From Arcobacteraceae bacterium (GTDB taxonomy: Bacteria; Campylobacterota; Campylobacteria; Campylobacterales; Arcobacteraceae), in contig JBLWVX010000011.1 in assembly GCA_048268245.1 (NCBI GenBank), positions 1-64,000 of the forward strand: a stretch of DNA of 64,000 nucleotides. Direction: 5' to 3'. Within the stretch, counting starts at the first letter, position 1, and the number at the start of each line of letters is the position of its first letter. The translations under genes and the position numbers were made by a program. The notes under the pieces are model-generated. The model had not been told where the DNA came from. It was given only the letters and a program-made list of their open reading frames with translations, and did not search any database. This document shows positions 39,777 through 56,745 of this stretch, in pieces.

Positions 39777-40994
39777 TTATTCAATTGGTAAATCTAATAT
39801 CTTCCAAGGTAAACCTTGAGTCATTAGTTCATCCATAAAAGGTTTAGCTTCAAACTCTTCTATATTGAATACACCTTTACCATCCCAAATACCTTTATAA
39901 AGCATTTTTGTTCCAATCATAGCAGGAACTCCAGTTGTATAAGATACTGCTTGTGCTCCTGTTTCTTTGAAACACTCTTGATGATCACATACATTGTAAA
40001 TATATACTTTTTTCTTTTTCCCGTCCTTAATACCTTCAATAATACAACCAATATTTGTTTTACCAACAGTTCTAGGTCCAAGACTAGCTGGATCTGGTAA
40101 TAGTGTAGTTAAAAACTCAATTGGAGTAATCTCAACACCTTTATGCATAATAGGCTCAATACCAAGCATACCTACATTTTGTAAGCAGTTCATGTGTTGA
40201 ATATATGAATCTCCAAATGTCATAAAGAATCTAATTCTTTTTAAACCTTTAATATTTTTTGATAAAGACTCTAACTCTTCATGATATAAAAGATATGAAG
40301 GTTTTACTCCAACTTCTGGATAATCATGTTCAACTCTAATTTCAAGGGGTTTTGTTTCAACCCATTCTCCAACACCTTCATCATTTTTTTGCCAATATCT
40401 ACCATTTGCAGATACTTCTCTTAAATTGATTTCTGGATTAAAGTTTGTAGCAAATGGGTATCCATGGTCACCTGCATTACAATCCATAATATCAATATAG
40501 TTTATTTCATCAAATAAGTTTTGTTGCGCATATGCACAAAATACCCCTGTAACACCTGGGTCAAAACCAGAACCTAATAAAGCTTTAATTCCAGCTTTTT
40601 CAAATTGTTCATGTCTAGCCCATTGTTCTTTATACTCAAATTTAGCCTCATCAGGGTGCTCATAATTTGCAGTATCAACATAATCAACACCTGTTTGTGT
40701 ACAAGCATCCATGATTGTCAAGTCTTGGTAAGGAAGTGCTACGTTTAGCACTACTTTTGGATTTACTTTTTTTATAAGCTCTACTAGCTCAGGAATATTA
40801 TCAGCATCTACAGACGCAGTATCAATATCAACATCTTGATTTTTCTTAATATCAGCAGCAATAGCATCACACTTTGAAACTGTTCTTGATGCTAAAGTGA
40901 TTTTTTCAAATGTATCGATATTCATAGCACACTTAACAGTAGCCACTCTACTAACTCCACCTGCACCGATGATTAAAATACCTTTTTTATCCAT
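39777..40994 (-). CDS. Carboxynorspermidine dehydrogenase (saccharopine dehydrogenase family)
   Basis: IIGAGGV, NVALPYQDL, GFDPG and FATNFNPEIN motifs; operonic with nspC. Confidence 0.9.
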   Translation of the reverse strand: MDKKGILIIGAGGVSRVATVKCAMNIDTFEKITLASRTVSKCDAIAADIKKNQDVDIDTASVDADNIPELVELIKKVNPKVVLNVALPYQDLTIMDACTQTGVDYVDTANYEHPDEAKFEYKEQWARHEQFEKAGIKALLGSGFDPGVTGVFCAYAQQNLFDEINYIDIMDCNAGDHGYPFATNFNPEINLREVSANGRYWQKNDEGVGEWVETKPLEIRVEHDYPEVGVKPSYLLYHEELESLSKNIKGLKRIRFFMTFGDSYIQHMNCLQNVGMLGIEPIMHKGVEITPIEFLTTLLPDPASLGPRTVGKTNIGCIIEGIKDGKKKKVYIYNVCDHQECFKETGAQAVSYTTGVPAMIGTKMLYKGIWDGKGVFNIEEFEAKPFMDELMTQGLPWKILDLPIE

Positions 40995-41082
40995 TTTTTT
41001 CTCCAAATTAATATGTATGATATTATAAACTTTTTTTAGTAAATAACTATTGAATTTTTAATTTGATTTTAATTTATTTGCT

Positions 41083-41118
41083 TTATACTATTTTTTAAGA
41101 AAATTACGATATAGTTTC
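41083..41118 (+). promoter_or_regulatory. Probable native ssrA promoter, now upstream of the 5' fragment only
   Basis: TTTAAG (41094-41099) and Gn-TATAGT -10-like box (41110-41115) just upstream of the tmRNA 5'-end copy. Confidence 0.5.
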
Positions 41119-41129
41119 AAATATTTTTT

Positions 41130-41190
41130 ATGGGGATGATATGGCTTCGATTAGAGCATCGAGGCTTGATTGCATGTCGGCCTGAGCATG
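41130..41190 (+). repeat. attL: 61-bp direct repeat comprising the 5' end of tmRNA
   Basis: ATGGGGATGATATGGC...CCTGAGCATG is identical to 54498-54558. Confidence 0.95.
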
Positions 41191-41271
41191 GTGGCTAAAT
41201 GTTCAAACACATCTCAGACTAATGCCATCTTTAGGTATCTAGAGCTATTTTTTAATTTTAGCTTAAACCTC

Positions 41272-41294
41272 TCATTCACAAACTCATTCACATT
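41272..41294 (+). repeat. Probable integrase arm-type site (left)
   Basis: TCATTCACAAACTCATTCACATT (tandem TCATTCACA) is identical to 54410-54432. Confidence 0.75.
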
Positions 41295-41330
41295 TTACGT
41301 GTTTTAGTCCAATTATTTAGGCTAATTACT

Positions 41331-42563
41331 ATGAGTGTTAATAAACTACTAACTTCACTTAATATCAACAAATATGGAGTATATTATCTTAGGTTTAGAG
41401 TCTCAAATAAACTAAGTAGATTTTTCAAAAAAGAGTACATTTCAAAGTCTTTATTTACAAAAGAAAAGAAGACAGCAAAAATTAAAGCTATGGTTTACAG
41501 AAGTAAATATATAGAGCTACTTCAAATATCAGAATGGATTGACGATAAGACACTTCAATTAAAAGTTAATGAATACATGAAGGATACTCTTAAAGTTGAA
41601 TGTCCAAGTATTGAACAAGAACAACCTAAGCAAGATGAGTTTAGATTAAAAGATGCTATTGCCTTATATAACAAATGGTACAAAAAACAAGGTGTAGCAG
41701 AGAAACAATATAAGATGATACAAAAAAGATTAAATGTGGCTATTTCATATTTTGGTGAAAATAGAATACTGAAAGAACTTAATACAGATGATATTGAAGA
41801 ATACATTGATTTTTTAACTAAGTATCCTAACCCTAACAAAAAACCTTACAAAACAATGAGTTTCAAACAAATACTTAGGCTCAAAAATGTACCTCAACAA
41901 GACTATATCTCACCTAGTACAGTTATTAAATATATCAAAGCATTTCAACAGCTTGAAAACTTCTTAGTTGATGATGGTAAACTTGACAGGAAAATAAGTA
42001 AAAGAGCTAAACTTCCAAATGTTAAAGATGCATCTAGAAGTCCGTTTACCGAAGATGACTTAAAAACTCTCTATAATAAGTTTGATAAAATGGGTGATTT
42101 AGGTCTACTCTACTACACATTTGCTTATTCAGGTATGAGAACTTCAGAGTTTTGGAAATCTAAAATAGGATATGAAGATGGCATATACTTTTTTGATTTA
42201 TCCTATGAAGGGGTAGAGCTTAAAACTAATTCAAGTAAACGTAAAATACCTATTCATTCTAAACTAATTGAAAAAGGTATCTTATATAAATTAGAGGAAC
42301 TTCAAGAATCATATAAACAGGGATATGTAAGTGAAATCTTTAACAGAAAACTAATCAACCTTATCAGAGACTCTAAGAATAAAGTAATGTATAGTTTTAG
42401 GCATACTGTAGCAACTCATTTAAAGAGAGCTGATGTTGATATTGATAAAATCTCTGAGATACTTGGACATCGCTATGAAAATACTTCTATGACTAAAACA
42501 GTTTATACTAATGGTTATTCTTTACTTCAACTAAAAGAAGCAATAGATAGATTAGATTTTTAG
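41331..42563 (+). CDS. Tyrosine recombinase / integrase of island 1
   Basis: N-terminal YYLRFRV...ISKSL.T arm-type domain; GMRTSE, LKT, YSFRH, ILGH and VY catalytic motifs; adjacent to attL. Confidence 0.92.
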   Translation: MSVNKLLTSLNINKYGVYYLRFRVSNKLSRFFKKEYISKSLFTKEKKTAKIKAMVYRSKYIELLQISEWIDDKTLQLKVNEYMKDTLKVECPSIEQEQPKQDEFRLKDAIALYNKWYKKQGVAEKQYKMIQKRLNVAISYFGENRILKELNTDDIEEYIDFLTKYPNPNKKPYKTMSFKQILRLKNVPQQDYISPSTVIKYIKAFQQLENFLVDDGKLDRKISKRAKLPNVKDASRSPFTEDDLKTLYNKFDKMGDLGLLYYTFAYSGMRTSEFWKSKIGYEDGIYFFDLSYEGVELKTNSSKRKIPIHSKLIEKGILYKLEELQESYKQGYVSEIFNRKLINLIRDSKNKVMYSFRHTVATHLKRADVDIDKISEILGHRYENTSMTKTVYTNGYSLLQLKEAIDRLDF

Positions 42564-42569
42564 TCTTGT

Positions 42570-45440
42570 CTATCTATCGTAAAACATTCCTACAAAACTA
42601 GTCACTTTATCAATGATATTAGTTATAGCTTTCTTTCTACCTAATGCTTTAGGTTTTTCCACTAAAGTATTAATAACTACATCAGGTTCAGGTTTCTTAC
42701 CATCATAAATATATGTATCTACGACTGACTTAAAGGCTTCTTTATGTAAGTTCTCTTCTTTAACCATTACTTCAAATACTTTGGTTTTTTCTTCTTCCAT
42801 AAAATTATCAAACTCTTCTTCAATCTCTTCAATATTAATGCTATCAAGTGTAGTATCTATGAACTTCTCAATTAATTCTTTCTTACTTCTTAGCTTAGGG
42901 TTTGAGTTTATGATATTAATAATATTAGCTCTTTGTTTTTCTTTTTGTTCTGCTGTCGAGTTTGCATACTTAGCTAGAAGCTTTAGGATATAAGCTACAT
43001 TAATCTCATCTTTATGAATCAACTCTAATTCAAAGTCAACGTCATCAAGTATAGAAACTTTCTCGCTTCCTTGTCCTGTTTTGTTAGCTTTGATTTTATC
43101 ATAAAGGTCAAGGTACTTAGATTTATAGTCTTCAAACATTTGTTCACTCATGGACAAGTCAGACCATTTGAAGTCACTAAACCCATCAAGAATATTTTTT
43201 AGTCTTATTAGCTCTCTAAATGCTTTAATAAACTCTAATTGTTCTTCTTCATCGATGATTGAATCAACACTGCTAACACTTGGAGCAATCTTAATTAATT
43301 CTTGAAATGCTTCATTGAACTTTTGTACATAATACTCATAAGGCTTCATTAAAATAATGTCTTTAGCTTCTTTGTTAGAGAACAATGCAATAGCATCATC
43401 TGTGTTTTTCTTCAAGTTTCTAAAACACACAATGTTACCTTGAGACTTTTGCTCATTTAGTATTCTATTAGTTCTACTATAGGCTTGTATCAGACCATGA
43501 TACTTCAAGTTCTTATCAACATAAAGGGTATTAAGCCTTGGACTGTCAAAGCCTGTTAAGAACATGTTTACTACCAACAGAATGTCTATCTCTTTTTGCT
43601 TAACCTTCTTAGAGATGTCATTATAGTAGTTATAGAAGCTTTGAGAGTCTTTTGTGCTGAACTTAGTGTTAAACATAGAGTTATAGTCTTCAATGTACTC
43701 ATCAAGCTTCTCACGACTGTGTTTATTAATATGAGACTCATCTATGTGTGCTCCATCAGATTCATCAAGTTCATAGATTCCATTAGCATCTTTGTCATCT
43801 TCATTTGCACTGTATGAAAAGATAGTAGCTACTTTTAGCTTGTGCTCTTTGCTCTTGAAAGCTTCATAATACTTGTGAAGAACATCAACACTACTAACAC
43901 ACATCATAGCTGTGAACTCTCTAGAGTGAGTTTTCCTGTCATGGTTAGCTAAGATATAATCAACAATCTTTCCAACCCTTTCTTTACTTTCTAACAGCTC
44001 TTTAACGTCTATGTTTTCAACTTCAATATCTACTTCAGTAGCACTGCCTTCTTTCTCTTTGTATCTTCCTATGTACTCAACTGAGAACTTCAACACATTA
44101 TCATCACTAATAGCATCTGTTATCACATACTGATGAAGCTTTCCATCTTCTCCACCAAACAGCTCTGCTGTAGTTCTCTTTCCATACTTATTGCCTACTG
44201 CATTCTCAGGAAAGATTGGAGTACCTGTAAAGCCTATTAGCTGAGCTTTTTCAAAGAAGCCTGTGATGTTTTTATGGGTTTCTCCAAACTGTGACCTATG
44301 GCACTCATCAAAGATGAAGACAACGTTTTTATCTCTTAAAGCTTCCATCTCTTTTAGGTAGTGAGGTTTACTAATAGCTGTATTTAGCTTTTGAATGGTA
44401 GTGATGATTAGGTTACTATCTTTTAGTACACCTTTTCTGTCTTTGTGTTTTCCTAAGAACTGATTCACTAGAACTTTAGTATTGTCTGTTCCATCAACTG
44501 AACCATCAGAGAAGCTGTTGAACTCTTTTGAGGTTTGAAAGTCTAAGTCTTTTCTATCAACAACAAAGACAACCTTATCAACTTCAGGAAGCTTCACTAG
44601 GATTTGAGATGCTTTGAATGATGTTAGAGTTTTACCTGAACCTGTTGTATGCCAAATGTAACCATTCTTTTGAGTGTTCTTAATCCTATCAACAATAGCT
44701 TCAACTGCATAGTATTGATAAGGTCTTAGAACCATTAGTATCTTTGGAACTTCAGCTAAAACAATATACTTACAAATCATCTTAGACACATGACATCGCT
44801 CTAGAAAGATTGAAGTGAACTCCTCAAGGTTTTTGATGTTAATGTTGTTCTTATCAGCCCAATAGAAAGTCTGCTTGAATGACTGCTTACGATTGTTCGC
44901 ATAGTACTTAGTGTTAACACCATTAGAGATTACAAAAAGCTGTACATAGTGAAATAAAGCACTGTTAAACCCATATGAGTGTCTTTGGTATCTGTTGATT
45001 TGATTGAAGGCTTCCTTTAGTTCTAGACCTCTCCTTTTTAGCTCAATCTGAACTAGAGGTAATCCATTGATAAGGATTGTTACATCGTATCTGTTCTTGT
45101 ACTTACCTTCTATAGTAACTTGTTGTGTAACTTGAAATAGATTCTGACACCAATGCTCTGAGTCTAAAAACTCAATATACTTTGTGTCTCCATTGTCTAA
45201 AGTTAAAGCATATTTGTCTCGAAGAAGTTTAGCCTTCTCAAAGACATTACCTTTGTTTATATGGTTTAGGATTCTTTCAAACTCATCAGAGCTTAGACTT
45301 GTCTTGTTGTGTTTTTCAAGTTGTGACTTTAGGTTTGACAGAAGTGAAGCTTCGTCTTTGATGACCACTTTCTCATAGCCTTGAGAGCTTAACTGTTTTA
45401 CTAAGTTGTCTTCTAGTACTGCTTCACTTTGTTTACTCAT
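42570..45440 (-). CDS. hsdR: Type I restriction endonuclease subunit R
   Basis: RYDV...NGLPLVQIELK nuclease motif; HTTGSGKT, DECHR, FTGTP, LTGFD and QAYSRTNR helicase motifs. Confidence 0.95.
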   Translation of the reverse strand: MSKQSEAVLEDNLVKQLSSQGYEKVVIKDEASLLSNLKSQLEKHNKTSLSSDEFERILNHINKGNVFEKAKLLRDKYALTLDNGDTKYIEFLDSEHWCQNLFQVTQQVTIEGKYKNRYDVTILINGLPLVQIELKRRGLELKEAFNQINRYQRHSYGFNSALFHYVQLFVISNGVNTKYYANNRKQSFKQTFYWADKNNINIKNLEEFTSIFLERCHVSKMICKYIVLAEVPKILMVLRPYQYYAVEAIVDRIKNTQKNGYIWHTTGSGKTLTSFKASQILVKLPEVDKVVFVVDRKDLDFQTSKEFNSFSDGSVDGTDNTKVLVNQFLGKHKDRKGVLKDSNLIITTIQKLNTAISKPHYLKEMEALRDKNVVFIFDECHRSQFGETHKNITGFFEKAQLIGFTGTPIFPENAVGNKYGKRTTAELFGGEDGKLHQYVITDAISDDNVLKFSVEYIGRYKEKEGSATEVDIEVENIDVKELLESKERVGKIVDYILANHDRKTHSREFTAMMCVSSVDVLHKYYEAFKSKEHKLKVATIFSYSANEDDKDANGIYELDESDGAHIDESHINKHSREKLDEYIEDYNSMFNTKFSTKDSQSFYNYYNDISKKVKQKEIDILLVVNMFLTGFDSPRLNTLYVDKNLKYHGLIQAYSRTNRILNEQKSQGNIVCFRNLKKNTDDAIALFSNKEAKDIILMKPYEYYVQKFNEAFQELIKIAPSVSSVDSIIDEEEQLEFIKAFRELIRLKNILDGFSDFKWSDLSMSEQMFEDYKSKYLDLYDKIKANKTGQGSEKVSILDDVDFELELIHKDEINVAYILKLLAKYANSTAEQKEKQRANIINIINSNPKLRSKKELIEKFIDTTLDSINIEEIEEEFDNFMEEEKTKVFEVMVKEENLHKEAFKSVVDTYIYDGKKPEPDVVINTLVEKPKALGRKKAITNIIDKVTSFVGMFYDR

Positions 45441-45456
45441 GGGTTTCCTTTAGTCT

Positions 45457-46677
45457 TTACACAAACATCTGTTGTAGGAGTGCTTTCTTGAACTGTTTTG
45501 TTGCTTCTAGTTGTCTTGTAAACTTTTGTATTTTATCATCTAAGCTTTGGAAGAAAACAACTATCTTCGATTGTTCTTCTAACTCAGGAATAGATATTGA
45601 ATCACTTATTGCATAAGAGTTATTGATTTTCATATCATTTTTTGCTCCTTTGTGAACAAGTGGTCTAAAGTAACTATTCACATTGTCATCAAGCTGAAAA
45701 TAGTAGTCAATAAATAAAGGATTCAAGTTTTCTTTTGGTCTATAAACTGCATAAAGAGTTGAAACAACTCCAGCTTTTTTCTTGTTAACCTTTACAATAC
45801 CATAAGGATTAGCCTTCAATGGACTTTTAGTATAAACAATATCATTAACCTTTACTACATGATAGTTATTTATTGACGCCCCTGCAAAAGAACGACCTTG
45901 AAACTCTATTTGATTAACAATCCCAAACTCTCCCGAAACTGATAATACATCATTTTTTGTATAGCTATCATCAATGTTTCTTTCTTTGTGTTCATACATT
46001 AGTTCATTTAGCTTTCTTTTTTTCCAAGAAGGAAACTCTCTTCCATCATCAGCTTTAAACCTAATCTCTTGTGAGAAGATTTTCTGCATCACACCTTTTT
46101 TGTATTGCTTTAGTAGTTCTTCTTTTTTTGTTAGCTGTTCTATTTTAGTATCAACTGAAGTAAGGAATGAAGCTATCTTTTCTTGTTCTTGTTTTACAGG
46201 AATTGATATAGGAATACTTTTGATTATAGAACCACTTAAGTTTTTTTGTCCACCATCATTACTAAGATTTCGGATGTTATCATACTGTCCTGCTAAATAT
46301 TGATATAAGAATATATAACTTGTATCTTTTGGTTTGATAGATGCACACGCTTGATTTGTAGTTGCTTGTATTTTTAAAATACCTACTTTGCCTCTTGTCT
46401 TACCTTGTCCATACATAGCCATCAGTATAGTGTTTTTTTCAAATAGTTTGGCAGATGAGTTATTTAAGGCTTCTTCTGTTATGTATTCTTCTGCACCTTG
46501 GATATCTTTAAAATCAATCAAAGAAGTAGTAACCCAAGGTATAGTTCCATTCCAATAAGAGGATTTGCTTCTTGATGGGGTACCACCTGAACTAACAACA
46601 GCTATATTACCAATATTAGTATTTTCCCACTCTCTACTAAACTCTTTGAATCTTAACTTAGGTACATTACTCATCAT
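45457..46677 (-). CDS. hsdS: Type I RM specificity subunit S
   Basis: VPKLRF N-terminus; two TRDs with repeated EQ.KI..F..S.D.KI...KK...Q..F conserved regions. Confidence 0.93.
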   Translation of the reverse strand: MMSNVPKLRFKEFSREWENTNIGNIAVVSSGGTPSRSKSSYWNGTIPWVTTSLIDFKDIQGAEEYITEEALNNSSAKLFEKNTILMAMYGQGKTRGKVGILKIQATTNQACASIKPKDTSYIFLYQYLAGQYDNIRNLSNDGGQKNLSGSIIKSIPISIPVKQEQEKIASFLTSVDTKIEQLTKKEELLKQYKKGVMQKIFSQEIRFKADDGREFPSWKKRKLNELMYEHKERNIDDSYTKNDVLSVSGEFGIVNQIEFQGRSFAGASINNYHVVKVNDIVYTKSPLKANPYGIVKVNKKKAGVVSTLYAVYRPKENLNPLFIDYYFQLDDNVNSYFRPLVHKGAKNDMKINNSYAISDSISIPELEEQSKIVVFFQSLDDKIQKFTRQLEATKQFKKALLQQMFV

Positions 46678-46683
46678 CTACCT

Positions 46684-48246
46684 CTAAAATGGCTTAGCAA
46701 TACCAAGCTCATCACAGAACTCAGCTATTGTTTCATCTGTAGTAACCATATCTGACTCTAAAGCTTTTAGCTTAGAACTAACTTCATCTAAGTCAACAGG
46801 TTCTTCTTCTTCAAAAGTGTCTACATACCTAGGGATATTTAAGTTATAGTCATTCTCTTTGATTTCATCCATTGAAGCTAGGTGTGAATACTTCTCTATC
46901 TCTTCTCTATTAGTGTAAGTCTGTACAATCTTAGAGACATTCTCATCAGTCATGTAGTTTTGGTTCTTAGCTTTCTCAAACTCATTTGAAGCATCCATAA
47001 ACAAGACATTGTCACTATCTTCTCTGCACTTCTTAAACACTAAGATACAAGTAGGGATTGAAGTTCCATAGAAGATGTTAGCAGGAAGACCAATAACAGC
47101 GTCTAAGTAGTTTCTATCTTCAATCAGGTACTTTCTTATGTGTCCTTCTGCTGAACCTCTGAACAGTACTCCATGGGGTAAAACTATAGCCATAGTTCCA
47201 TTATCATCTAAGTGATGTATCATATGCTGTACAAAAGCAAAGTCTGCTTTAGAAGAAGGTGCTAGTTTTCCATACTGAGAGAATCTGTCATCACTTAAGA
47301 ACAAATCATTAGCTGACCATTTAGCTGAGAATGGAGGATTAGCAACGATTGCTTCAAACCTGTCATCCAAGTGCTGAGGGTGTTCTAAAGTATCTTCATG
47401 CTTGATGTCAAACTTTCTGTAGTGCACATCATGCATAATCATGTTCATTCTTGCTAAGTTGTAAGTTGTAGCATTTAACTCTTGACCATAGAAGTTAGAG
47501 ACATCAGATACCTCTTTAGCAACTCTAAGAAGTAGTGAACCTGAACCACATGTTGGGTCATACACAGACTTTAGTTTTGTCTTACCAGTAGTTACTATCT
47601 TAGCTAAGACTTTAGATACTTGCTGAGGTGTATAAAACTCTCCTGCTTTCTTTCCTGCACCTGCGGCGAACTGACCAATAAGATACTCATAAGCATCACC
47701 AAGGATGTCACTTTCGGTATCTTTTAGTTCAAAGTCTATGTTATCTAAGTGAGTAAGAACTCTTACTATCAACTCATTTCTTTTTTCAACAGTTTTCCCA
47801 AGTTTCACAGAAGTTAGGTCAAGGTCATCAAACAGGTTTACGAAGTCATCTTCACTGTCATGCCCCATTGTTGTTTGCTCTATGTTTCTTAGGATTGACG
47901 TTAGGTCTTCAAGGATGAAGTTGTTCTCTGTTCCACTTCCTCTTTTTGCTATTTCAGAAAATAGTTCATTAGGTCTTAAAAAGTATCCTAGTTTTTCTAA
48001 AGCTTCATCTTTAACTACTTCAATATACTCTTTTTCTTGTTCATGTCCTAAAACTTCTAGATATGAAATACCATCCTCTTTTAGTATTTGTGTATTTGCA
48101 TAATCTTCAATCTTCTCAGATAAGTACTTGTAAAAAATAAATCCTAGTATGTAATCTCTAAACTCATCAGCATCCATCTTCCCTCTAAGGGTATCTGCAA
48201 TGTTCCATAGTTGTCTTTCAAGTTGTTTTTTATGCTCGTCGCTCAA
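46684..48246 (-). CDS. hsdM: Type I RM N6-adenine methyltransferase subunit M
   Basis: LW.IA..LRG, GEFYTP, DPTCGSG and NPPF motifs; TTG start. Confidence 0.95.
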   Translation of the reverse strand: MSDEHKKQLERQLWNIADTLRGKMDADEFRDYILGFIFYKYLSEKIEDYANTQILKEDGISYLEVLGHEQEKEYIEVVKDEALEKLGYFLRPNELFSEIAKRGSGTENNFILEDLTSILRNIEQTTMGHDSEDDFVNLFDDLDLTSVKLGKTVEKRNELIVRVLTHLDNIDFELKDTESDILGDAYEYLIGQFAAGAGKKAGEFYTPQQVSKVLAKIVTTGKTKLKSVYDPTCGSGSLLLRVAKEVSDVSNFYGQELNATTYNLARMNMIMHDVHYRKFDIKHEDTLEHPQHLDDRFEAIVANPPFSAKWSANDLFLSDDRFSQYGKLAPSSKADFAFVQHMIHHLDDNGTMAIVLPHGVLFRGSAEGHIRKYLIEDRNYLDAVIGLPANIFYGTSIPTCILVFKKCREDSDNVLFMDASNEFEKAKNQNYMTDENVSKIVQTYTNREEIEKYSHLASMDEIKENDYNLNIPRYVDTFEEEEPVDLDEVSSKLKALESDMVTTDETIAEFCDELGIAKPF

Positions 48247-48320
48247 TCTAAACCTTATAAATATTATCTGTATAAAGTTAAGATATTACCTAAAAAGTGC
48301 TAATTATAAAATAAAAATAA

Positions 48321-49478
48321 CTAACTTACATATTCATATAACGTTATATCTTGGTTACTAATAATTGAGCCATCTTTTATATCATCAACTCCTAAATGAA
48401 TATAGTTTAAACTAGTATGATAACTTTTATGTCCCATAAATGTCATAATTTTATACCCATTCCATTTACTTACACTCGCTAGTCTTGATGCAACTGTATG
48501 TCTCAGTCCATAAGGGACATAGTCTTTATGTATTTCTTTATCAGTCCAGTTTAGATGTTTTTTCATTATTGTCCATCTGTTGCCAACCATATCTTGTGTT
48601 AGTCTAGTGAACTTTAGAGTTTTGTATTTACTGTCACTTACAATGTCTTTAAGTTCAATATCGCAAGGAAGTTTCTTTTTATGTATGATAGTTAGAGAGT
48701 ATTTAATATGCTCTTTAATAGCTTTTAGTACAATGCCTTCAAGTGGCAAAGTCCTGATGAGATTGTTTTTTGTTGAATTATATGAACCTCTAGATATTGT
48801 AACATGGTTATTATAGAAATCAAAGTCACCTAACTGAAGATTAAAATATTCTGCTGGTCTTAATCCAAGTGATATATTAATTATAAAATACTTTATCATT
48901 TCCCAATCAGTACTATTATTTGTTTCCTTGTATCTTTCAACTAATGTTTGGTACATTTGATATTCTTCATATCTTGAAAAGCATATTTTTCTTTTCTTAT
49001 ATACAGGCATTCTCAAACCTTCAAATGGAAGTTTATTGTCTAAAATTAGTTTTTGTTTATTTTCCAAATACTCAATTGATGTTTTTAATGTTGATATATA
49101 GTGATTTATTGTTTTATTTGCGTAATTCTTCTTTATAAGATACCTTTTAAACCTATCAAGGTCATCGACAGTTAATGTTGAGATAAGTCTACTTTCTCCG
49201 AAAAACATAGATATTTTTTCCCATCTCATTAGTGGATTTTTTTTATCCCTAAAATATATCCATTTAGTTTCATAAATATATGATGTAGCATCTTTGAAGC
49301 TTAATCCTAAGTCTATTTCTTTGGGATTGAGGTACTCTATAGGGTTAATAATATGTTTCTTCCATTCATCTTCTTTTTCTAAAGCTTTTTTCTTTATTTT
49401 TGTAGTCCAAGTTTTTTGATAACGTATTTTATTAATTATAAAATCAGACTTCCAAAATCCATTTTGTTTCTTATACAT
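48321..49478 (-). CDS. Second tyrosine recombinase (phage-integrase-like)
   Basis: TIN.Y.S.L, GLRPAE, TKN, YGLRHTVASRL, MGH and NYIH motifs; AAGGAG SD. Confidence 0.88.
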   Translation of the reverse strand: MYKKQNGFWKSDFIINKIRYQKTWTTKIKKKALEKEDEWKKHIINPIEYLNPKEIDLGLSFKDATSYIYETKWIYFRDKKNPLMRWEKISMFFGESRLISTLTVDDLDRFKRYLIKKNYANKTINHYISTLKTSIEYLENKQKLILDNKLPFEGLRMPVYKKRKICFSRYEEYQMYQTLVERYKETNNSTDWEMIKYFIINISLGLRPAEYFNLQLGDFDFYNNHVTISRGSYNSTKNNLIRTLPLEGIVLKAIKEHIKYSLTIIHKKKLPCDIELKDIVSDSKYKTLKFTRLTQDMVGNRWTIMKKHLNWTDKEIHKDYVPYGLRHTVASRLASVSKWNGYKIMTFMGHKSYHTSLNYIHLGVDDIKDGSIISNQDITLYEYVS

Positions 49479-49705
49479 TTTTCTCCTTTATATGAATAAT
49501 ATTGGAAAAAATAAAATAAAGTCAAAGTTTTGAAAGACTATGATTACCCAAAGCTTACGAATCTACTCGTTAAGTAAAAAAAATACCAAAAAAATCTGAA
49601 ACCCCATAATGTAAACCACAGTAAAAGTTATCCCCCCATACCCCCTCTTAAGTTCACAGATAAAGAACTTTAAGGGGAAACTTCAAGCCCAACTATTAAA
49701 ACCTT

Positions 49706-49794
49706 TCTGTGAGAAGCCTACAAGCTCTTTTCCTTTTTTAGTCTAATGTTTATATCAAGAAATAAGCTCTAGGGTTTCTACATAACCTTACAGA
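49706..49794. repeat. Imperfect long palindromic element, left of the resolvase
   Basis: TCTGTGAGAAGCCTACAAGCTCTT ... AAGCTCTAGGGTTTCTACATAACCTTACAGA; related to 50553-50643. Confidence 0.5.
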
Positions 49795-49927
49795 CTTCTA
49801 TTAATCTATCAATCTATAACCTTCATTAAAACTAAAGTATTTTATAAAGTCTTATACTTGACAAAGTATTTATAATTTGATAAAGTTTCAAGCATAATAT
49901 ACCTTAAGACTTGAAAGGAGATTTTAA

Positions 49928-50560
49928 ATGACAATAGGATACCTAAGAGTTTCAACTGATAGACAAACTGTAGAGAACCAAAAGAGTGTTATTAGAGCTT
50001 ACTGTAATGATAAGTTAAAGATAACTGTTGATGATTGGATTGAAGTTGTAATGAGTTCAAGAAAAGACTTAAGAGACAGAAAGATAGATGAACTTTTATC
50101 AATACTTTCAAAAGATGATAAAGTGATTGTGAGTGAACTATCAAGGTTAGGTAGGTCAACTCAAGAGGTTCTACAGACTATAGAGAAGCTTATGAAGTTA
50201 GAGGTAGAACTACATATCATTAAACAAAACCTTACAGTTAATCCAAACAATAAGAATGACTTTGTATCAAAAGCTATGATTACTTTATTTGGTCTATTTG
50301 CAGAGTTAGAGCGAGACTTAATCAGTCAAAGAACTAAAGAGGCTTTAACAGCTAGAAAAGAACAAGGAGTTACTTTAGGGAAGCCTAAAGGTACACTTCA
50401 AAAGTCAAAATATGATGAGCATAAAGATAGGATAGTTGAACTTAAGAGTTTAGGTTTATCACTTAACAAGATTGTATCTAATCATTTAGAGCCAGTTATG
50501 GGAAAAGGTAACTGTTCTGTTCAAAGCTTATCTACTTACTTAAAGAAAAGAGGTCTGTAA
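49928..50560 (+). CDS. Small serine recombinase (resolvase/invertase)
   Basis: GYLRVST..Q, ELSRLGRS, FAELER.LI.QRT..AL and G.P motifs; C-terminal HTH. Confidence 0.93.
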   Translation: MTIGYLRVSTDRQTVENQKSVIRAYCNDKLKITVDDWIEVVMSSRKDLRDRKIDELLSILSKDDKVIVSELSRLGRSTQEVLQTIEKLMKLEVELHIIKQNLTVNPNNKNDFVSKAMITLFGLFAELERDLISQRTKEALTARKEQGVTLGKPKGTLQKSKYDEHKDRIVELKSLGLSLNKIVSNHLEPVMGKGNCSVQSLSTYLKKRGL

Positions 50561-50643
50561 GTCTATCTTACAGCTCTTCTTTTAATCCACTAATACTTTT
50601 TATTAACTTACAACTAAAAGGCTTTGTAGGGTTTCCTACAGAC
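50553..50643. repeat. Imperfect long palindromic element, right of the resolvase
   Basis: GTCTGTAAG..CTTACAGCTCTT...TAAAAGGCTTTGTAGGGTTTCCTACAGAC; arms are self- and mutually complementary. Confidence 0.5.
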
Positions 50644-50710
50644 TGTCTATACCTCAAAAATTACTTACTAAAACTTATTTATTACAATACCCATAAAATC
50701 GAGCCTTTTT

Positions 50711-50898
50711 GAAGATACCCCTCTCTAGGAAGAGTGTTTAACTTATCAACTTCTAAAAAGACCTTTATTAAGGCTTTCTCTTAAGAGGGTGCAGTATAGG
50801 AGAGAACTTAATTTAGTAATCTCAATAATTCCCCTTAATTAGGTAGTTATCTGAAGGGGGACCCGTATAGGAAGTAAAGAGTGCTTCCTCTAGGAGGA
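50711..50898 (+). promoter_or_regulatory. Array of four motifs with T7-type RNAP promoter geometry (degenerate 71-bp repeat)
   Basis: DAAGR-N8-T(A/C)TA-GGAR at 50711, 50782, 50853 and 50876; function inferred. Confidence 0.45.
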
Positions 50899-50931
50899 AA
50901 ACTAAAATCAAAATCATAAAAGGAGGTTCAG

Positions 50932-51411
50932 ATGAACAACAATCAAACACAACTGAAAGATGTTGTAATGTTTACTGATGGCTCTTGTTTAGATAATGGT
51001 AGAAATGGAACTGGAGGATACTGTGCATTACTACAGACACCTAACAAGAAACATCAAAAGATAATTAAAGGTAGTGAGTTAGATACTACGAATAATCGTA
51101 TGGAGATAACAGCTATCATTGAAGGACTAAAGGCAATTAAAAAGCCTTCAAGAGTTACAGTCTATAGTGACTCTAATATAACTGTAAGAGCTATTAATGA
51201 ATGGCTTGAGGGTTGGATAAGAAAGAACTTTAGAAAGGTTGCTAATGTAGACCTTTGGAAAGAGTATTTAGAGGTATCAGCTAAACACCAAATTAAGGCT
51301 ATATGGGTTAAAGCTCATAGTGGTATTTATGAGAATGAGCTTGTAGATGATATAGCTAGAAGTGAAGCTATGAAGTTACATAGTAAGAGAGGTGTTCATT
51401 ATGAGTATTAA
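50932..51411 (+). CDS. rnhA: Ribonuclease HI (island-borne)
   Basis: FTDGSC, TTNNRME, YSDS, NVDLW and WVKAHSG...NE.VD motifs with catalytic residues intact; AAGGAGG SD. Confidence 0.93.
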   Translation: MNNNQTQLKDVVMFTDGSCLDNGRNGTGGYCALLQTPNKKHQKIIKGSELDTTNNRMEITAIIEGLKAIKKPSRVTVYSDSNITVRAINEWLEGWIRKNFRKVANVDLWKEYLEVSAKHQIKAIWVKAHSGIYENELVDDIARSEAMKLHSKRGVHYEY

Positions 51412-52189
51412 GATTGATAACTTTAAACCATTTGATGAGTATGCAAAAGAAACTTACTTAAGTATTCTACATAACAAACAGCTCAAAACTCCTCAAGCAC
51501 ATATTACAGATGAAGATAGAAATATTCTTGAAAGAAAATGTCATGCTTATACTAAAAACAATTATGAAGTCTTTAGTGAGTACCTTGAAGATATAATTAT
51601 TAGCTATGAAAATGAAGCAGAACTTGAAATACATAATACTACGCTCTTAATAAATAAGCATACAGGAGAGATTTTATCTGAAGATTTTCATATCATAGAC
51701 AAGGATTATATAAAACTAAAAAGAAAAGAGTTAAATAGTCTTAAATATTACAAAAAGAAGTTTACTAAATCAAAAACTAATAGTAAGGTTAAAGTTGAAA
51801 ACTATAAGTCTAACCACAGATATACTAAGCTCTTCTCTAAGGTTAAACCATTATTTAAAAACCATAAATATCTTGGTATCTTTTATGACATTAGTAGAGA
51901 ATTAAGCCCTTATGAAAACATAGTATCTCAACAAAACAATGATGGTAGATTTACTCCATTAACAACTAAACAGATACAAGAGAGGTTTAATATTTCTCCT
52001 GATGATATGAAGAGATTTAAAGCTGAAGCAAAAAGACTTAAAGTTATTAGTGATGTAAAACTAAAAGGAAGAACTTTAGGTATAAGGGTAAATCCAGTTT
52101 ATGCTCTAAATGGGCAAGATATAAGTGAAAGCTTATATAAAGCATTTAAAGACTCTAAAGAGTTTATAGAGAACTTCAAAGAAAACTAA
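51401..52189 (+). CDS. Putative replication-type / HTH DNA-binding protein (RepL-like)
   Basis: IN..TGEI motif, C-terminal HTH-like LT.KQI.E.F.IS and RVNP.Y...G; overlaps the rnhA stop. Confidence 0.45.
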   Translation: MSIKIDNFKPFDEYAKETYLSILHNKQLKTPQAHITDEDRNILERKCHAYTKNNYEVFSEYLEDIIISYENEAELEIHNTTLLINKHTGEILSEDFHIIDKDYIKLKRKELNSLKYYKKKFTKSKTNSKVKVENYKSNHRYTKLFSKVKPLFKNHKYLGIFYDISRELSPYENIVSQQNNDGRFTPLTTKQIQERFNISPDDMKRFKAEAKRLKVISDVKLKGRTLGIRVNPVYALNGQDISESLYKAFKDSKEFIENFKEN

Positions 52190-52532
52190 AGGTGTATATA
52201 CGCACTATTATAAAATCACTAGAACACCTATAATATGGGCTTTATTAAAGATTTAAGTTAACAAATGCTTCTTATATATAGTGAAAAATCTATAGATAAC
52301 TTATATATTTAATTAGTATAGAAATGAGTTTAGGCTAGAGCTATATTAGCATTAAAAGTAAAGCTATTACTAGACCTTAATTTCATTTCTAAACAATCAT
52401 AATCTTAGAGTAATACTTAAGTAATAACTATAAATTGACTTTAAATAAATACATTACTCCGTGTCTTTGATACTACCTATTTCTCTTTATCTAGTCTAAA
52501 AATATCACTTTCAACAAATCTCATTACAAAGG

Positions 52533-52740
52533 CTATCGGGTTTTTAGTCCCTCTTCACTGCTTCCTCTAGGAGAAGAAACTACAAAATCTCCATTGGAAA
52601 TATGTTCTATTGCCCTTATTATAGGCTTAAGTAGAAAGACTATCGGGTTTTTAGTCCCTATTACACCCCCTCTAGGAGAAGACTTTAATTAAAACTACAA
52701 AATCTCCATCGGAAATATATCCTGTTGCCCTTATTGTAGG
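52533..52740 (+). repeat. Two about 95-100-bp direct repeats (52533-52625 and 52640-52740)
   Basis: Shared CTATCGGGTTTTTAGTCCCT, CCTCTAGGAGAAGA, AAACTACAAAATCTCCAT.GGAAATAT and TTGCCCTTATT.TAGG blocks. Confidence 0.9.
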
Positions 52741-52783
52741 GTTAATTTAAAAAAATAAAACAAGTACATAAAAGGAGAAGTAA

Positions 52784-52846
52784 ATGCCTACAGTTAAAGA
52801 GGTACTAGAAGAGCAAGCAATAGAATATGAAAGAAGTGCGTTATAG
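52784..52846 (+). CDS. 20-aa small ORF MPTVKEVLEEQAIEYERSAL
   Basis: AAGGAG SD; the stop abuts the GGGAG SD of the next gene; may be a remnant. Confidence 0.35.
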   Translation: MPTVKEVLEEQAIEYERSAL

Positions 52847-52857
52847 GGAGACCTAAA

Positions 52858-53503
52858 ATGAAAACTGAAGTTATGATGATAAGACAACTTGGAGATATTC
52901 AAGTAAGACAATCTAATCAGACTGAGATGTTTAATGCTACAGATTTGGTGAATGGGTTTAATGAGTATAGAAAGGCTATGGGATTACCTGAGAAGAGACT
53001 ACAACACTATTGGGAAAATGACTCAACTAAAGAGTTCCTTGAAGCCCTAGAAATGGAGCTTAGTTTAAATAACCGGAAATCCGGTGAATTAAAAATCACT
53101 AGAAAAGGAAAGTATGGAGGGACTTATGTTGCTCCTGAAGTGTTCGTAGATATTGCTATGTGGTTAAACCCTAGCTTCAAAGCTAAAGTAATGATTTGGG
53201 TGTCAGACAATCTGTTAGGTGTTAGGAATACTTCAGGTATCCAACAGCAAGTTATGAACAGAGTTAGCTGAGAAGTTCAGTAATAGGACTACAAAATGGT
53301 TGATTATGAGGTTTAGTAAAAGAATTAATGAACATATCCTAGAGGAAGGTCAAGACTGGCAGAGTGCTACTACAGAACAACTAGAGCAAAGACTAGCACT
53401 ACAAACTAAGATTATAAATGCGTGTGAGCTTTTACCTGATGGTATTAGTGAAGATGAGTTCTGTGAAATAGTGTTTAAAGTTAGACCTAAAGTTGTAGCT
53501 TAA
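52858..53503 (+). pseudogene. KilA-N domain protein split by a frameshift near 53264
   Basis: FNATDL...W.N..TKEF..AL...KYGGTY...IAMWLNP.F; the +1 frame continues LAEKFSNRTTKWLIMRFSK...W.SAT.EQL into ORF 53300-53503. Confidence 0.75.
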
Positions 53504-53514
53504 GGAGGACTACT

Positions 53515-53619
53515 ATGTCAATACATATATACAAGATGTTCTTAGCTAGAGGACACAATAAAAAAACAGCTCAGAAGATGTATAAAAATTATATAGGAAA
53601 AATGAAGGAGGAAAAATAA
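53515..53619 (+). CDS. 34-aa basic small ORF MSIHIYKMFLARGHNKKTAQKMYKNYIGKMKEEK
   Basis: TAAGGAGG SD; fills the gap between neighbouring genes almost exactly. Confidence 0.5.
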   Translation: MSIHIYKMFLARGHNKKTAQKMYKNYIGKMKEEK

Positions 53620-53620
53620 A

Positions 53621-54073
53621 ATGATTAAAAATGAAATATTAAAAGTAGATATTAGTGAGGAAGTTGTAGTAGAGGTTCAGCCACACAAAGAGCATGAGTG
53701 GCTGTTGTCAAGTAAAGATGTGGCTGAAAGTTATGGTTTGAGTAGAAGTGGTCTTACTAAAACTAAAAGTAGATATGCAGATGAACTTGAAGAAGGTAAA
53801 CACTGGGTTGTGACAGATTGTCACACCCTTGGAGGAAAACAAAAAACAGTTTATTGGACTAAAGAAGGCGTAGTAATGTTAGGGTTCTTCATTAAGACAC
53901 CTACAGCTAAAAAGTTTAGAAGATGGGCTTCAAACTTTATCGTTGAGAAAAGTAAAGAACCAAAAGCCCCTGTAGTACCTCAGACATACATAGAGGCACT
54001 TCAAGCTCACTTAGAGTCAGTTAGAGAGTCAGAGGAAGGTAATAGAGTTATTACTTTACAAGCGCCTAAATGA
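53621..54073 (+). CDS. Phage antirepressor-like protein, probably C-terminally truncated
   Basis: KDVA..YG, TLGG.Q....WT.EG...LGF...AK.FR.W; PQTY.EAL and QAPK linker followed by an abrupt stop. Confidence 0.65.
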   Translation: MIKNEILKVDISEEVVVEVQPHKEHEWLLSSKDVAESYGLSRSGLTKTKSRYADELEEGKHWVVTDCHTLGGKQKTVYWTKEGVVMLGFFIKTPTAKKFRRWASNFIVEKSKEPKAPVVPQTYIEALQAHLESVRESEEGNRVITLQAPK

Positions 54074-54409
54074 TGACTTGATGGATAAAGAGAGCCTTAT
54101 GTACCCTATGAATGGTTTGTAATGATATAAGTACCAAACTATAAAGACCCTGAGATAAGACTAGAGAGTATATGGTTATTACTCTTGAGGGTGTTAGCTG
54201 AGATTAAGCCTATTGCAGATGAAGTTATAGCAAATGGTTTAATTAAGCCTGTAGGTAAGTAAGATATTAATAAAACATTTATGTTTAAGTTATGGTCATG
54301 TGGGTCATTTAGTGTACCTACATGATGACCACCTATTGAGAGAAGTGTTACTCAAGACATATAGTTACAGTTAAAGAATCTTATCTCAACTATAAATTAA
54401 ACTTTAAGG

Positions 54410-54432
54410 TCATTCACAAACTCATTCACATT
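54410..54432 (+). repeat. Probable integrase arm-type site (right)
   Basis: Identical 23-mer to 41272-41294. Confidence 0.75.
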
Positions 54433-54466
54433 ATACTAATTTTAAGAAATACTTGGATAGTATTTC
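54431..54466 (+). promoter_or_regulatory. Island-supplied replacement promoter for ssrA (putative)
   Basis: TTATACTA.TTTTAAGAAA...GA-TAGTAT-TTC parallels the native upstream sequence at 41083-41118. Confidence 0.5.
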
Positions 54467-54497
54467 GTTTTACTAAACACGCCGTAAATGAATATCG

Positions 54498-54558
54498 ATG
54501 GGGATGATATGGCTTCGATTAGAGCATCGAGGCTTGATTGCATGTCGGCCTGAGCATG
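54498..54558 (+). repeat. attR: 61-bp direct repeat restoring the ssrA 5' end
   Basis: Identical to 41130-41190. Confidence 0.95.
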
Positions 54559-54897
54559 CCGTTACGCGGCTCATTTTTTTTAGACGCAAACAATACAAAT
54601 TACGCTCCAGCTTACGCAAAAGCTGCGTAAGTTTAACAACTTATAACGAGCTCCCTTCGGGTTGAGCTTTTGGAGGTTCGCTCTGTAGATTCTATCTATG
54701 CAGGATTTAGCGGATTCACCCAGATAGATTACCAAAGAGAGATTGATCGAATTTCTTTGGGACATCCTTAGATCTTAGCTTTTTAGTTGCCTTGCAGGTT
54801 GAGCTGCTAGAAAGTGAAATTTTTCAACCTCACTAAGCATGTAGACGTCAAGAGTAGATGTTTTAAGACTCCGGTTCGATCCCGGACATCTCCACCA
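54500..54897 (+). ncRNA. ssrA: tmRNA; tag (A)ANNTNYAPAYAKAA encoded at 54586-54630
   Basis: 5' GGGGATG pairs with 3' CATCTCC-ACCA (G3:U alanine identity); T-arm CCGG-TTCGATC-CCGG; tag ORF ends in Ala-Ala. Confidence 0.97.
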
Positions 54898-55011
54898 TTA
54901 CACAATCTAACACAATCCATAAAACTATTCAAAAACCCCAATTTATCGAGATGTAATCATAAAAATAGTCCGATATGAACTTACTTAAAATATTGTAATC
55001 CAACTCTTTTC

Positions 55012-55069
55012 GGGGTATATTTAGGGGTACTCTGATAAAATCTTATATACATATTTTTAATATACCCCC
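55012..55069. repeat. Arm-type sites of the P4-like integrase
   Basis: GGGGTATATTTAGGGGTAC plus inverted TATACCCCC directly upstream of int. Confidence 0.7.
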
Positions 55070-55082
55070 TAAAGGATTCTAA

Positions 55083-56300
55083 ATGGCTAAAGTTATAGTA
55101 CCTCTGTCAAGTACACAAATTAAAAGTGCAAAACCAAAAGAAAAAGATTATAAACTTTTTGATGGTGGTGGTTTATTTTTATTAATAGCTAAAACTGGTG
55201 GTAAAAGATGGAGAATGAAATACAGATTTAATGGAAAAGAAAAACTTATTGCATTAGGTGTTTATCCTCAAATTTCATTAAAAGTTGCTAGGGAATTAAG
55301 AGAGCAATATAAATCTATGATAGCACAAGGAATTGATCCAAACCAAGAAAAAAAACAAAAAAAAGAAGAGACTAAAAGAACTGAGGAAAAAAAAGAAAAT
55401 ACTTTCTTTAAAATTTCACAAGAATGGCATAAAAATTATGCAACTGAGGTATCAGAGAATTATCATTATAAACTTGAAAGAGCATTAGAAAACTATATAT
55501 ATCCTTTCATAAAAAACAAAGCTATAGAAGATATAACAAGACTAGATATTATAGAAATACTTCAAGATTTAAAGAATAAAGGTATTATAGACACAGCAAA
55601 TAGAGTTTATATGCTTTTAAATAAAATATATAAATACGCGGTAACATTGGAGTATGTTCCTCATAACATAATAGCAGATATTGAGCAAAAAAATATATTA
55701 GGTAAAATAGAGAAAAAACATTATCCAACTTTTACAAAAGATGAAGACATAAAAGGATTACTTCTATCAATTGATGAATATGAAGGTGATTATTCAACAA
55801 AAATGGCTTTAAAAATACTTCCTTATATATTTGTAAGAAGTTACAATATAAGACATGCTAAGTGGTCTGAAATAAATTTTGATACAAAAGAATGGATTAT
55901 ACCAGCGTCGAAAATGAAAACTAAAAAAGAATTTATATTACCTTTACCTAAAAATGTAATAGAATTACTTTATGAAGTAAATAAGATTACAGGACAAGAA
56001 GAGTACATTTTTCCAAGTTATAGACAAAGAAACAGACCAATGAGTGACAATACTTTATTATCAGCTATAAGAAGGATGGGATATACAAAAGAAGAATTTG
56101 TACCTCACAGTTTTAGAGCAATGTTTTCAACAATAGCATATGAAAATATGGAAGAACATGGATATAGTAGTGAAGTTATAGAATCACTACTTGCTCATGT
56201 AGAAAAAAATAAAGTGAAAGAAGCTTACAATAGAGCATCTTATAAAAAATCAATGAGAGGATTAATCGAGTGGTATGCTAATTATTTAAAAAATAAGTAG
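55083..56300 (+). CDS. P4-like tyrosine integrase
   Basis: AKPKEK.YKL.DGGGL.L...GGK.WR..YRF.GKEK..ALGVYP arm domain; FVR, KMK, HSFR, LAH and AYNR motifs. Confidence 0.95.
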   Translation: MAKVIVPLSSTQIKSAKPKEKDYKLFDGGGLFLLIAKTGGKRWRMKYRFNGKEKLIALGVYPQISLKVARELREQYKSMIAQGIDPNQEKKQKKEETKRTEEKKENTFFKISQEWHKNYATEVSENYHYKLERALENYIYPFIKNKAIEDITRLDIIEILQDLKNKGIIDTANRVYMLLNKIYKYAVTLEYVPHNIIADIEQKNILGKIEKKHYPTFTKDEDIKGLLLSIDEYEGDYSTKMALKILPYIFVRSYNIRHAKWSEINFDTKEWIIPASKMKTKKEFILPLPKNVIELLYEVNKITGQEEYIFPSYRQRNRPMSDNTLLSAIRRMGYTKEEFVPHSFRAMFSTIAYENMEEHGYSSEVIESLLAHVEKNKVKEAYNRASYKKSMRGLIEWYANYLKNK

Positions 56301-56417
56301 CCACAAATTTATCTTTTTAAATTTTTTCATTCCAAATAATCTATAAATTACTAATTATTTATATTTTATAAATATATACAATACATTATAAAAACGATAT
56401 TTATCAATATACTATAT

Positions 56418-56485
56418 TCACTATAGGGAATTTATTTAATAATCATATTCATGTAATATTTTATTATTAAATCACTATGGGGAAT
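56418..56485 (+). promoter_or_regulatory. Two near-identical 14-bp boxes (putative XRE operators)
   Basis: TCACTATAGGGAAT (56418-56431) and TCACTATGGGGAAT (56472-56485); the first lies in the quasi-palindrome TTCACTATAGGGAA. Confidence 0.5.
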
Positions 56486-56489
56486 AATT

Positions 56490-56735: not shown

Positions 56736-56745
56736 AGAGAGTAAA

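Follow-up and report, generated by a model that had tools for sequence, protein, structure and literature searches.

Here we describe a discrete, intact integrative element at positions 41130-54558 of contig JBLWVX010000011.1 of an Arcobacteraceae bacterium, recognized by its exact attachment (att) repeats, the arm sites on both of its sides and the empty sites of relatives. The window, the whole stretch of DNA that we analysed, comprises the first 64 kb of this 73.7-kb contig (which ends at 73659) of a 2.68-Mb draft genome. Inside the element, arrays of a 24-nucleotide (nt) motif precede two operons (Table 1). Tentatively, we place it in a hitherto undescribed family of small integrative 'hitcher' elements found in Arcobacteraceae, of which it is an intact example, a placement to which we give slightly less than an even chance; from its gene content, its avoidance of GATC and its insertion polymorphism, we infer that its way of working is closest to that of a minimalist satellite or another hitcher.

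The element lies between identical 61-nt direct repeats at 41130-41190 and 54498-54558 and spans 13,429 bp (~13.4 kb) between their outer ends. These exact repeats, claimed by a first-pass annotation made from the letters alone, were borne out by a repeat search; that annotation had overlooked their identity with the 5′ end of the transfer-messenger RNA (tmRNA) gene, ssrA. Because ARAGORN and Rfam place the tmRNA gene at 54500-54897, each repeat consists of 2 nt followed by the first 59 nt of ssrA. An Rfam scan of 40000-56000 returned the tmRNA and no other RNA family. Duplication of the 5′ part of the gene has left the native ssrA upstream region in front of the displaced fragment and the integrase gene int1, and the working ssrA copy is preceded by island DNA containing TTATACTAATTTTAAGAAA, a segment that may act as a replacement ssrA promoter, as judged from its resemblance to the native upstream region. 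A 491-nt flank query ending with attL, run against five other genomes of the genus, gave full-length matches at 93-95% identity in three, and in all three of these a complete tmRNA gene starts exactly at the repeat start, which corresponds to the empty site. The empty-site joint 41129>54498 was also found on contigs from two of four oyster or mollusc metagenome runs, alongside island-bearing contigs in the same runs. Empty and occupied sites thus coexist, and the island is present in some genomes and absent from others.

Searches of Arcobacteraceae genomes and marine metagenomes yielded seven related loci, one of which, G011, was added by the int1 search, and with the window eight elements were compared (G and L numbers denote the related elements and their loci). 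In an all-against-all comparison of the eight, the integrase and a winged-helix protein that we call initiator-like were each found in seven, the serine recombinase in five (L015 begins inside a sixth copy) and RNase HI in three; a KilA-N, Rha or Bro/Ant-type protein was present in every element with a complete right side. Beyond the integrase and the initiator-like protein, no other island protein was common to most of the eight elements. The layout int1, hsdRSM, int2, resolvase is common to the window, L016 and G011, and identities between the window and L016 differ along it (resolvase 91%, hsdM 86%, hsdR 81%, initiator-like protein 64%, hsdS 57%), which points to modular exchange. Two members carry the same IS21-type element (istA, istB), inserted in the resolvase gene of G006 (L006 9994-12341) and in int2 of G011 (L055 10098-12445). 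Where RNase HI is missing, in L016 (9825-9890), L006 and L055, a short ORF (open reading frame) keeps the first seven codons, MNNNQTQ, and its end overlaps the initiator start codon; from these retained features we conclude that RNase HI was gained or lost by a clean internal event.

A DUF6538-type tyrosine integrase with arm sites of its own at both ends placed the element within the first 59 nt of ssrA. Pairs of TCATTCACA lie ~65-80 nt from the core on both arms, and 4 of the 13 genomic copies of TCATTCACA are at the island ends. In G103, the closest relative, a different tandem 10-mer pair occupies the corresponding places on both arms; because the pair differs together with the integrase, we read the TCATTCACA pairs as integrase arm sites. 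They look like epsilonproteobacterial DnaA boxes, a reading set aside in view of the different 10-mers at the same places in G103. The Islander survey counts 159 of 3919 tDNA islands with a 5′ fragment against 3760 with a 3′ fragment (PMC4383910), by which account 5′-fragment integration is a known but uncommon mode. The window element is built like that minority: its target RNA gene is intact, a 5′ fragment of the gene lies displaced upstream, oriented the same way, and the two enclose a tyrosine integrase. It differs from the 5′-fragment islands, as far as they are described there, in that a whole integrase clade uses the mode (ssrA, 59 nt; tRNA-Arg, 52 nt; purD leader RNA) and in that the element also brings a look-alike of the upstream region. 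Thus G006 duplicates the 5′ 52 nt of tRNA-Arg (L006 7161-7214 and 15286-15339), and because it too has the layout of fragment, integrase and, at the far end, intact gene, targeting of the 5′ side seems to be a habit of the clade. G011 targets the purD leader RNA motif (RF01069) and has a 106-nt repeat at L055 1937-2042 and 17462-17567, and L016 carries the same motif at its right end (13123-13227); the whole 106-nt leader motif is thereby duplicated by an element whose integrase, like that of L016, is 70-73% identical to int1. In the purD-targeting elements the island end likewise resembles the chromosomal upstream region, with a score reached by 4 of 2000 shuffles. G103 targets the 3′ part of tRNA-Cys and L018 a tRNA-Leu.

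In this genome the motif is confined to the element. Sequence CCTCTAGGAG occurs three times in the 2.68-Mb genome, always inside the island and on the + strand. When a weight matrix trained on 22 sites from the other elements was run genome-wide, its four top scores (27.0, 24.9, 22.3 and 21.9 bits) all fell in the island and the best elsewhere was 18.4; with no strong copy outside the island, a host regulon was rejected. Leave-one-element-out matrices applied to the eight elements at a threshold of 15 bits detected 31 sites on the coding strand and 0 on the opposite strand, all beside the initiator position. The first-pass annotation had let its reading hang on the presence of such arrays in homologous islands; they are present there, co-oriented and beside the corresponding genes, and the copies on the KilA-N side of the window have homologues before the downstream operon in L015 and G011. 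Alignment on GGA of 28 copies from eight loci revealed information from -16 to +8 and a consensus of roughly AAGAtanCCCCyCTmTA followed by GGAGaaa, in which positions -4 to +4 were fixed by the way the copies were picked and the remaining positions were free. The last copy sits 39-115 nt ahead of the first start codon. Tandem units of 23-26 nt occur in L015, in L018 and at 50870/50893 of the window. Contigs from three of four metagenome runs lack 50735-50876, a 142-bp deletion between two copies, so that natural variants differ in copy number. A hairpin reading of the motif was discarded, as the CCTC/GAGG stem is not conserved among copies. In genome contigs the pattern gave scattered single matches, and three Campylobacterota loci that were inspected were unrelated sequence.

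The gene between the arrays encodes a protein of narrow distribution. It falls into 12 clusters among 5.8 billion proteins, with Halarcobacter and Aliarcobacter as the only source names, and is found in three of 183 other genomes of the family, one of them weakly (E 8.7e-5, 22% identity), and at four metagenome loci; no relatives were confirmed in genome contigs or viral contigs. The AlphaFold model has a mean predicted local distance difference test (pLDDT) score of 59 and is confident just at residues ~150-235, where fold searches matched the ORC2 winged helix (Z 8.2) and the MarR family, that is, a generic winged helix only. Pfam gave a sub-threshold match to DUF5390 (24.6 bits against a cut-off of 25), and 12 members of the family matched no known replication-protein family (Rep_3, RepL and others) at E up to 5. 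A protein-language-model search placed RepL-family clusters among its nearest neighbours, and 1 of the 30 remote relatives scanned reached the RepL cut-off. The name 'Rep-like', given by the first-pass annotation, is therefore backed by position and by the winged-helix fold, and not by membership in a known replication-protein family.

The initiator gene travels with the segment that follows it, which in the window, L015 and G103 combines a GGTGTATATACGCAC dyad with an A+T-rich stretch. In G011 the region upstream of the initiator position is conserved as far as the start codon, after which the gene is swapped for one encoding an unrelated 150-residue (aa) winged-helix protein (hhalign probability ~1%), whose PHROG matches are to a DnaD-like loader (1.1e-5) and to replication initiation proteins (1e-3). 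The segment at 52190-52330 is not alignable there, and the alignment resumes past the ~140 nt that follow the initiator gene in the window, L015 and G103; because it resumes only beyond that segment, the exchanged unit is the initiator gene plus the downstream segment. We take this segment as the likelier candidate for the origin cognate to the initiator. Motif copies persist in G011 on either side of the swapped module, three in all, and share the variant AGCCCACTCTAGGA.

GATC is absent from the island, as the first-pass annotation had stated: there are 0 sites in 13,429 bp, where composition leads one to expect 39.9 and the host rate of 0.93 per kb about 12. Six related stretches contain 0, 0, 0, 0, 1 and 1, and one of these two sites belongs to the inserted IS21, the second being 141 bp away from the end of a contig. 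AATT is also scarce in the island (47 against 178 expected by composition; genome-wide ratio 0.69) and is depleted in all relatives, by ~1.6- to 3.8-fold against composition. Avoidance of restriction sites is a familiar consequence of restriction, and from the avoidance of GATC the family would be expected to enter new cells often as unmodified double-stranded DNA.

By elimination, since most elements have no further protein in common and the motif is otherwise absent from the host genome, an outside factor, most simply one from an infecting phage, is the best candidate for its reader. The motifs would then be promoter-level switches read by a factor that the host does not encode, with a single-subunit RNA polymerase as the leading specific candidate. 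Once switched on, the element would make RNase HI and the initiator and start its replication in the segment immediately following the initiator gene; multimers would be resolved by the serine recombinase, and the integrase would excise the element, which could leave in the particles of a helper or as free DNA. We give a phage-encoded reader somewhat less than an even chance; a single-subunit polymerase, which is a part of that share, is by itself unlikely, and so is a reader that is neither phage-encoded nor the winged-helix protein of the element.

Several observations weigh against this phage-dependent scheme. No helper phage was found. A first pattern scan of viral contigs returned 24 loci with single scattered matches and no clusters, and in a second, with at least 118 loci, none of the 80 loci examined had two matches of at least 17 bits. 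No circle (attP) junction was seen among the metagenome contigs examined. G103, although the closest relative, has one deviant copy, with a 1-nt insertion and a score below 15 bits. Copies within a single element diverge strongly at -12 to -5, many of them form 23-26-nt tandem units beside a DNA-binding protein gene, as iterons do, and each array opens with a copy that is part of a longer, 45-nt unit with a conserved CCCATAAAATC box 9 nt upstream, which is longer than any single-subunit polymerase promoter known to us. Finally, sigma-70-like -10 boxes lie near some copies, so that host transcription is possible. The satellite-like reading of the first-pass annotation accordingly stands in part: the element is discrete, intact, equipped with defence cargo and devoid of virion, packaging and transfer genes, and the two viral-contig scans revealed no phage with clustered motifs.

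The alternative that survives best is that the winged-helix protein of the element itself binds the motifs, which would serve as origin and in autoregulation as in P1 and F, so that the element would be an integrated small plasmid that needs no phage. In P1/F iteron replicons, ~20-nt direct repeats flank the gene of a DNA-binding winged-helix protein, and a resolvase is close by. Here, too, the arrays adjoin the winged-helix gene in seven of eight elements and flank it in the window and L015; the spacings of 23-26 nt recur, copy number varies naturally (the 142-bp deletion in three of four runs), a serine recombinase lies beside the arrays as in plasmid multimer resolution, and RepL turns up both in the language-model search and in the one remote relative. 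Unlike P1/F, the initiator-like protein has no match to Rep_3, RepL or any other initiator family, and the repeats persist after a swap of the protein gene; the motif also stands ahead of the regulator operon. The three well-matched copies that G011 retains outside the swapped module, despite the unrelated replacement protein, argue against plain iterons, because the motifs stayed while initiator gene and segment were exchanged, and speak for control at the promoter level by a factor not clearly encoded in host or element. We think it doubtful that the winged-helix protein reads the motif, and equally doubtful that the element is an iteron replicon.

The specific form of the phage reading, in which a T7-type single-subunit RNA polymerase would use the motifs as tandem promoters and the island would be a podophage satellite, the Campylobacterota counterpart of enterobacterial T7-promoter islands, is less probable again. 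The ~24-nt motif, with a conserved A-rich stretch at -16 to -13, a C-rich one at -10 to -5, TMTA at -4 to -1 and GGAG at +1 to +4, has a layout that we take to resemble the T7-group promoter consensus; the copies are strictly co-oriented (31 to 0), absent from the remainder of the genome and kept after the initiator swap in G011. Against this, the region from -12 to -5, which sets specificity in T7-type promoters, is where the copies vary, the 45-nt composite unit has an extra conserved box, viral contigs hold no clustered copies and no cognate phage or polymerase was found. PF00940 matched 0 of 184 genomes of the family, a result that is uninformative because the control likewise matched 0 of 14. 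It is improbable, in our estimate, that the elements are the first phage-satellite family of Campylobacterota, in which the RNA polymerase of a virulent phage would fire the promoters, RNase HI would trim the RNA-DNA hybrid into a primer, transcription would start replication and restriction-modification (R-M) cargo would spread in helper capsids; we know of no phage satellite described in that phylum. Least probable of all is an inert remnant, a decayed prophage or fixed defence island that no longer moves and whose repeats have no present function: 424 bp after bro lack an open frame, the KilA-N and Bro-N proteins are short and single-domain and no excisionase-like gene was recognized in the island copy, but the two att copies agree at all 61 nt, each of the 11 ORFs is open, the compact gene set recurs at at least four targets (ssrA, purD leader, tRNA-Arg, tRNA-Cys), occupied and empty sites occur together in the same metagenome runs and GATC avoidance is maintained family-wide.

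Tandem T7-like promoters on islands of enterobacteria were reportedly noted by Chen and Schneider in 2006, a precedent for tandem arrays on an integrase-bearing mini-island. The window element is likewise a small chromosomal island with an integrase gene (int1 and att repeats), has no structural genes and bears a co-oriented tandem motif of promoter shape and ~23 nt; it differs in host phylum, in the much lower uniformity of the copies and in its gene set (RNase HI, winged-helix protein, KilA-N/Rha/Bro). The motif, T7-like in layout, matched the promoter consensus of no phage found, and the viral-contig scans gave no clustered copies. Our literature search found nothing on point for T7-promoter satellites or for integration at the 5′ end of ssrA. 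PICI, cf-PICI, P4-like elements and PLE are defined by terS, ppi, sid/psu, capsid genes or a pri-rep or alpha primase; no ORF of the island gave a Pfam or PHROG match to any of these, in keeping with the first-pass view that the element does not fit the P4, PICI or PLE gene sets.

Another parallel is offered by PICMI, described as minimalist satellites of virulent vibriophages in marine hosts, of ~6 kb at minimum, with an integrase, AlpA, a DUF3987/DUF5906 primase and insertion next to fis, and without capsid-remodelling or packaging genes (PMC10803314). On that description, PICMI and the window element have in common an integrase, a small replication module, defence cargo, a marine setting and the lack of packaging genes, and because PICMI is a true satellite, a gene-poor element can be one (PMC10803314). 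The island ORFs gave no Pfam match to AlpA (PF05930 or PF12728) or to a primase with DUF3987 or DUF5906, and the target is the 5′ end of ssrA and not the neighbourhood of fis. PICI and tycheposons carry a site-specific integrase at one of their ends and insert at tRNA or tmRNA targets; they have defence cargo and, optionally, a small module for replication (bioRxiv 10.1101/2020.12.28.424599). The window element is like them in its end integrase, small replication module, defence cargo and tmRNA target, and differs from that description in having no primase, helicase, terS or capsid gene and in its integrase lineage and host.

Annotation with Pfam, PHROGs, NCBIfam and PADLOC revealed eleven ORFs between the repeats, all open (Table 1). 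The two tyrosine recombinases, the serine resolvase and the Type I R-M system named by the first-pass annotation were all found by Pfam and PHROGs, the R-M system with hsdR, hsdM and hsdS together. So were the co-directional genes for RNase HI, the Rep-like protein, KilA-N and the antirepressor, all on the + strand. Shine-Dalgarno sequences are visible as well: AAAGGAG(G) precedes the resolvase gene, rnhA, a short ORF at 52785 and bro. Equally in agreement, no capsid, terminase, relaxase or type IV secretion system (T4SS) family was matched among the 11 ORFs by Pfam, PHROGs or PADLOC. The backbone has two co-directional operons, rnhA with the winged-helix gene and then the KilA-N and Bro-N regulators. 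The R-M genes travel with int2, which is 63% identical in L016 and interrupted by IS21 in G011. The serine recombinase matched the NCBIfam Mpi-family invertase at 2.7e-47, below the cut-off of that model. RNase HI had Thermus RNase H (1ril) as its best solved-structure match (E 1.2e-31, aligned over the whole length), with which it has FTDG, NNRME, YxDS and VD in common; from the aligned acidic residues we read it as probably active. The host chromosome has RNase H genes of its own elsewhere. The KilA-N protein is 64% identical in G103, and its nearest phage relatives are from marine Pseudoalteromonas and Vibrio phages (35-46%). The 424 bp after bro contain broken frames only, and tblastn of the relatives' proteins over 53272-54497 detected no remnants; because no relative's protein matches this stretch, a partly decayed right arm, as first proposed, was not borne out.

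Table 1. Features of the integrative element, in window coordinates.
Feature	Position	Strand	Basis or remark
attL	41130-41190	+	displaced copy of 2 nt and the initial 59 nt of ssrA, still preceded by the native upstream region
Putative integrase arm-type sites, left arm: TCATTCACA x2 in tandem	41272-41292	+	repeat comparison
int1, tyrosine integrase with DUF6538 N-terminus	41331-42563	+	PF00589 1.8e-07; PF20172 4.6e-06; PHROG 1 integrase 4e-31
Type I R-M cargo, hsdR/hsdS/hsdM	42570-48246	-	Pfam and PADLOC
hsdR	42570-45440	-	
hsdS	45457-46677	-	
hsdM	46684-48246	-	
int2, second tyrosine recombinase	48321-49478	-	PF00589 2.4e-13
Small serine recombinase (resolvase/invertase type)	49928-50560	+	PF00239 4e-34
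First motif array: CCCATAAAATC box and four 24-nt copies	50686-50900	+	G of GGA at 50728, 50799, 50870, 50893
RNase HI (rnhA), full length	50932-51411	+	PF00075 8e-37
Initiator-like ('Rep-like') protein, C-terminal winged helix	51392-52189	+	overlaps rnhA end; 262-265 aa
Segment travelling with the initiator gene: GGTGTATATACGCAC dyad and A+T-rich stretch (candidate origin)	52190-52330		conserved in the window, L015 and G103
Two tandem units of 107-115 bp before the KilA-N operon, one motif copy each	52525-52757	+	G of GGA at 52570, 52675
KilA-N domain protein	52858-53271	+	PF04383 4.9e-19
67-aa ORF			one of the eleven ORFs
Bro-N (antirepressor-type) domain protein, 150 aa	53621-54073	+	PF02498 8.9e-06; PHROG anti-repressor families
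Putative integrase arm-type sites, right arm: TCATTCACA x2	54410-54430	+	same pair as on the left arm
TTATACTAATTTTAAGAAA, island-borne look-alike of the native upstream region	54431-54449	+	local alignment; score reached by 15 of 2000 shuffles
attR	54498-54558	+	island-side 61-nt copy, which supplies the 5′ end of the working gene (tmRNA, 54500-54897)

Further repeats and neighbours were observed. A box TAGGGTTTC(C)TACA...ACAGACT is repeated in direct orientation on either side of the serine recombinase gene (49760-49810 and 50615-50655), and TTGTAGGGTT recurs ahead of the KilA-N operon (52734-52743); both are possible recombinase or regulator sites. A second island begins right after the tmRNA 3′ end and occupies 55083-63998 of the window and beyond, with a P4-type integrase (Arm-DNA-bind_3) followed by DndF, DndG and DndH; its far end may lie on contig C26, where 16 nt match the tmRNA 3′ end. 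With a Type I R-M system at its 5′ end and DndFGH at its 3′ end, ssrA is thus flanked by defence islands on both sides. Over 1-64000, GC skew, negative at first, becomes positive near 49-50 kb and the genes change orientation around ssrA, which may reflect local gene orientation or a replication landmark.

Small integrase-bearing islands without transfer genes are common. The elements described here are a compact and testable case of how such islands may move. Four of their features stand out: a directional 24-nt signal that is confined to the elements, conserved and placed before both operons; the coupling of an accessory RNase HI with an initiator-like gene; an integrase clade aimed at the front end of RNA genes that brings a replacement upstream region with it; and the total avoidance of GATC, which suggests that the elements often reach new hosts as unprotected DNA.

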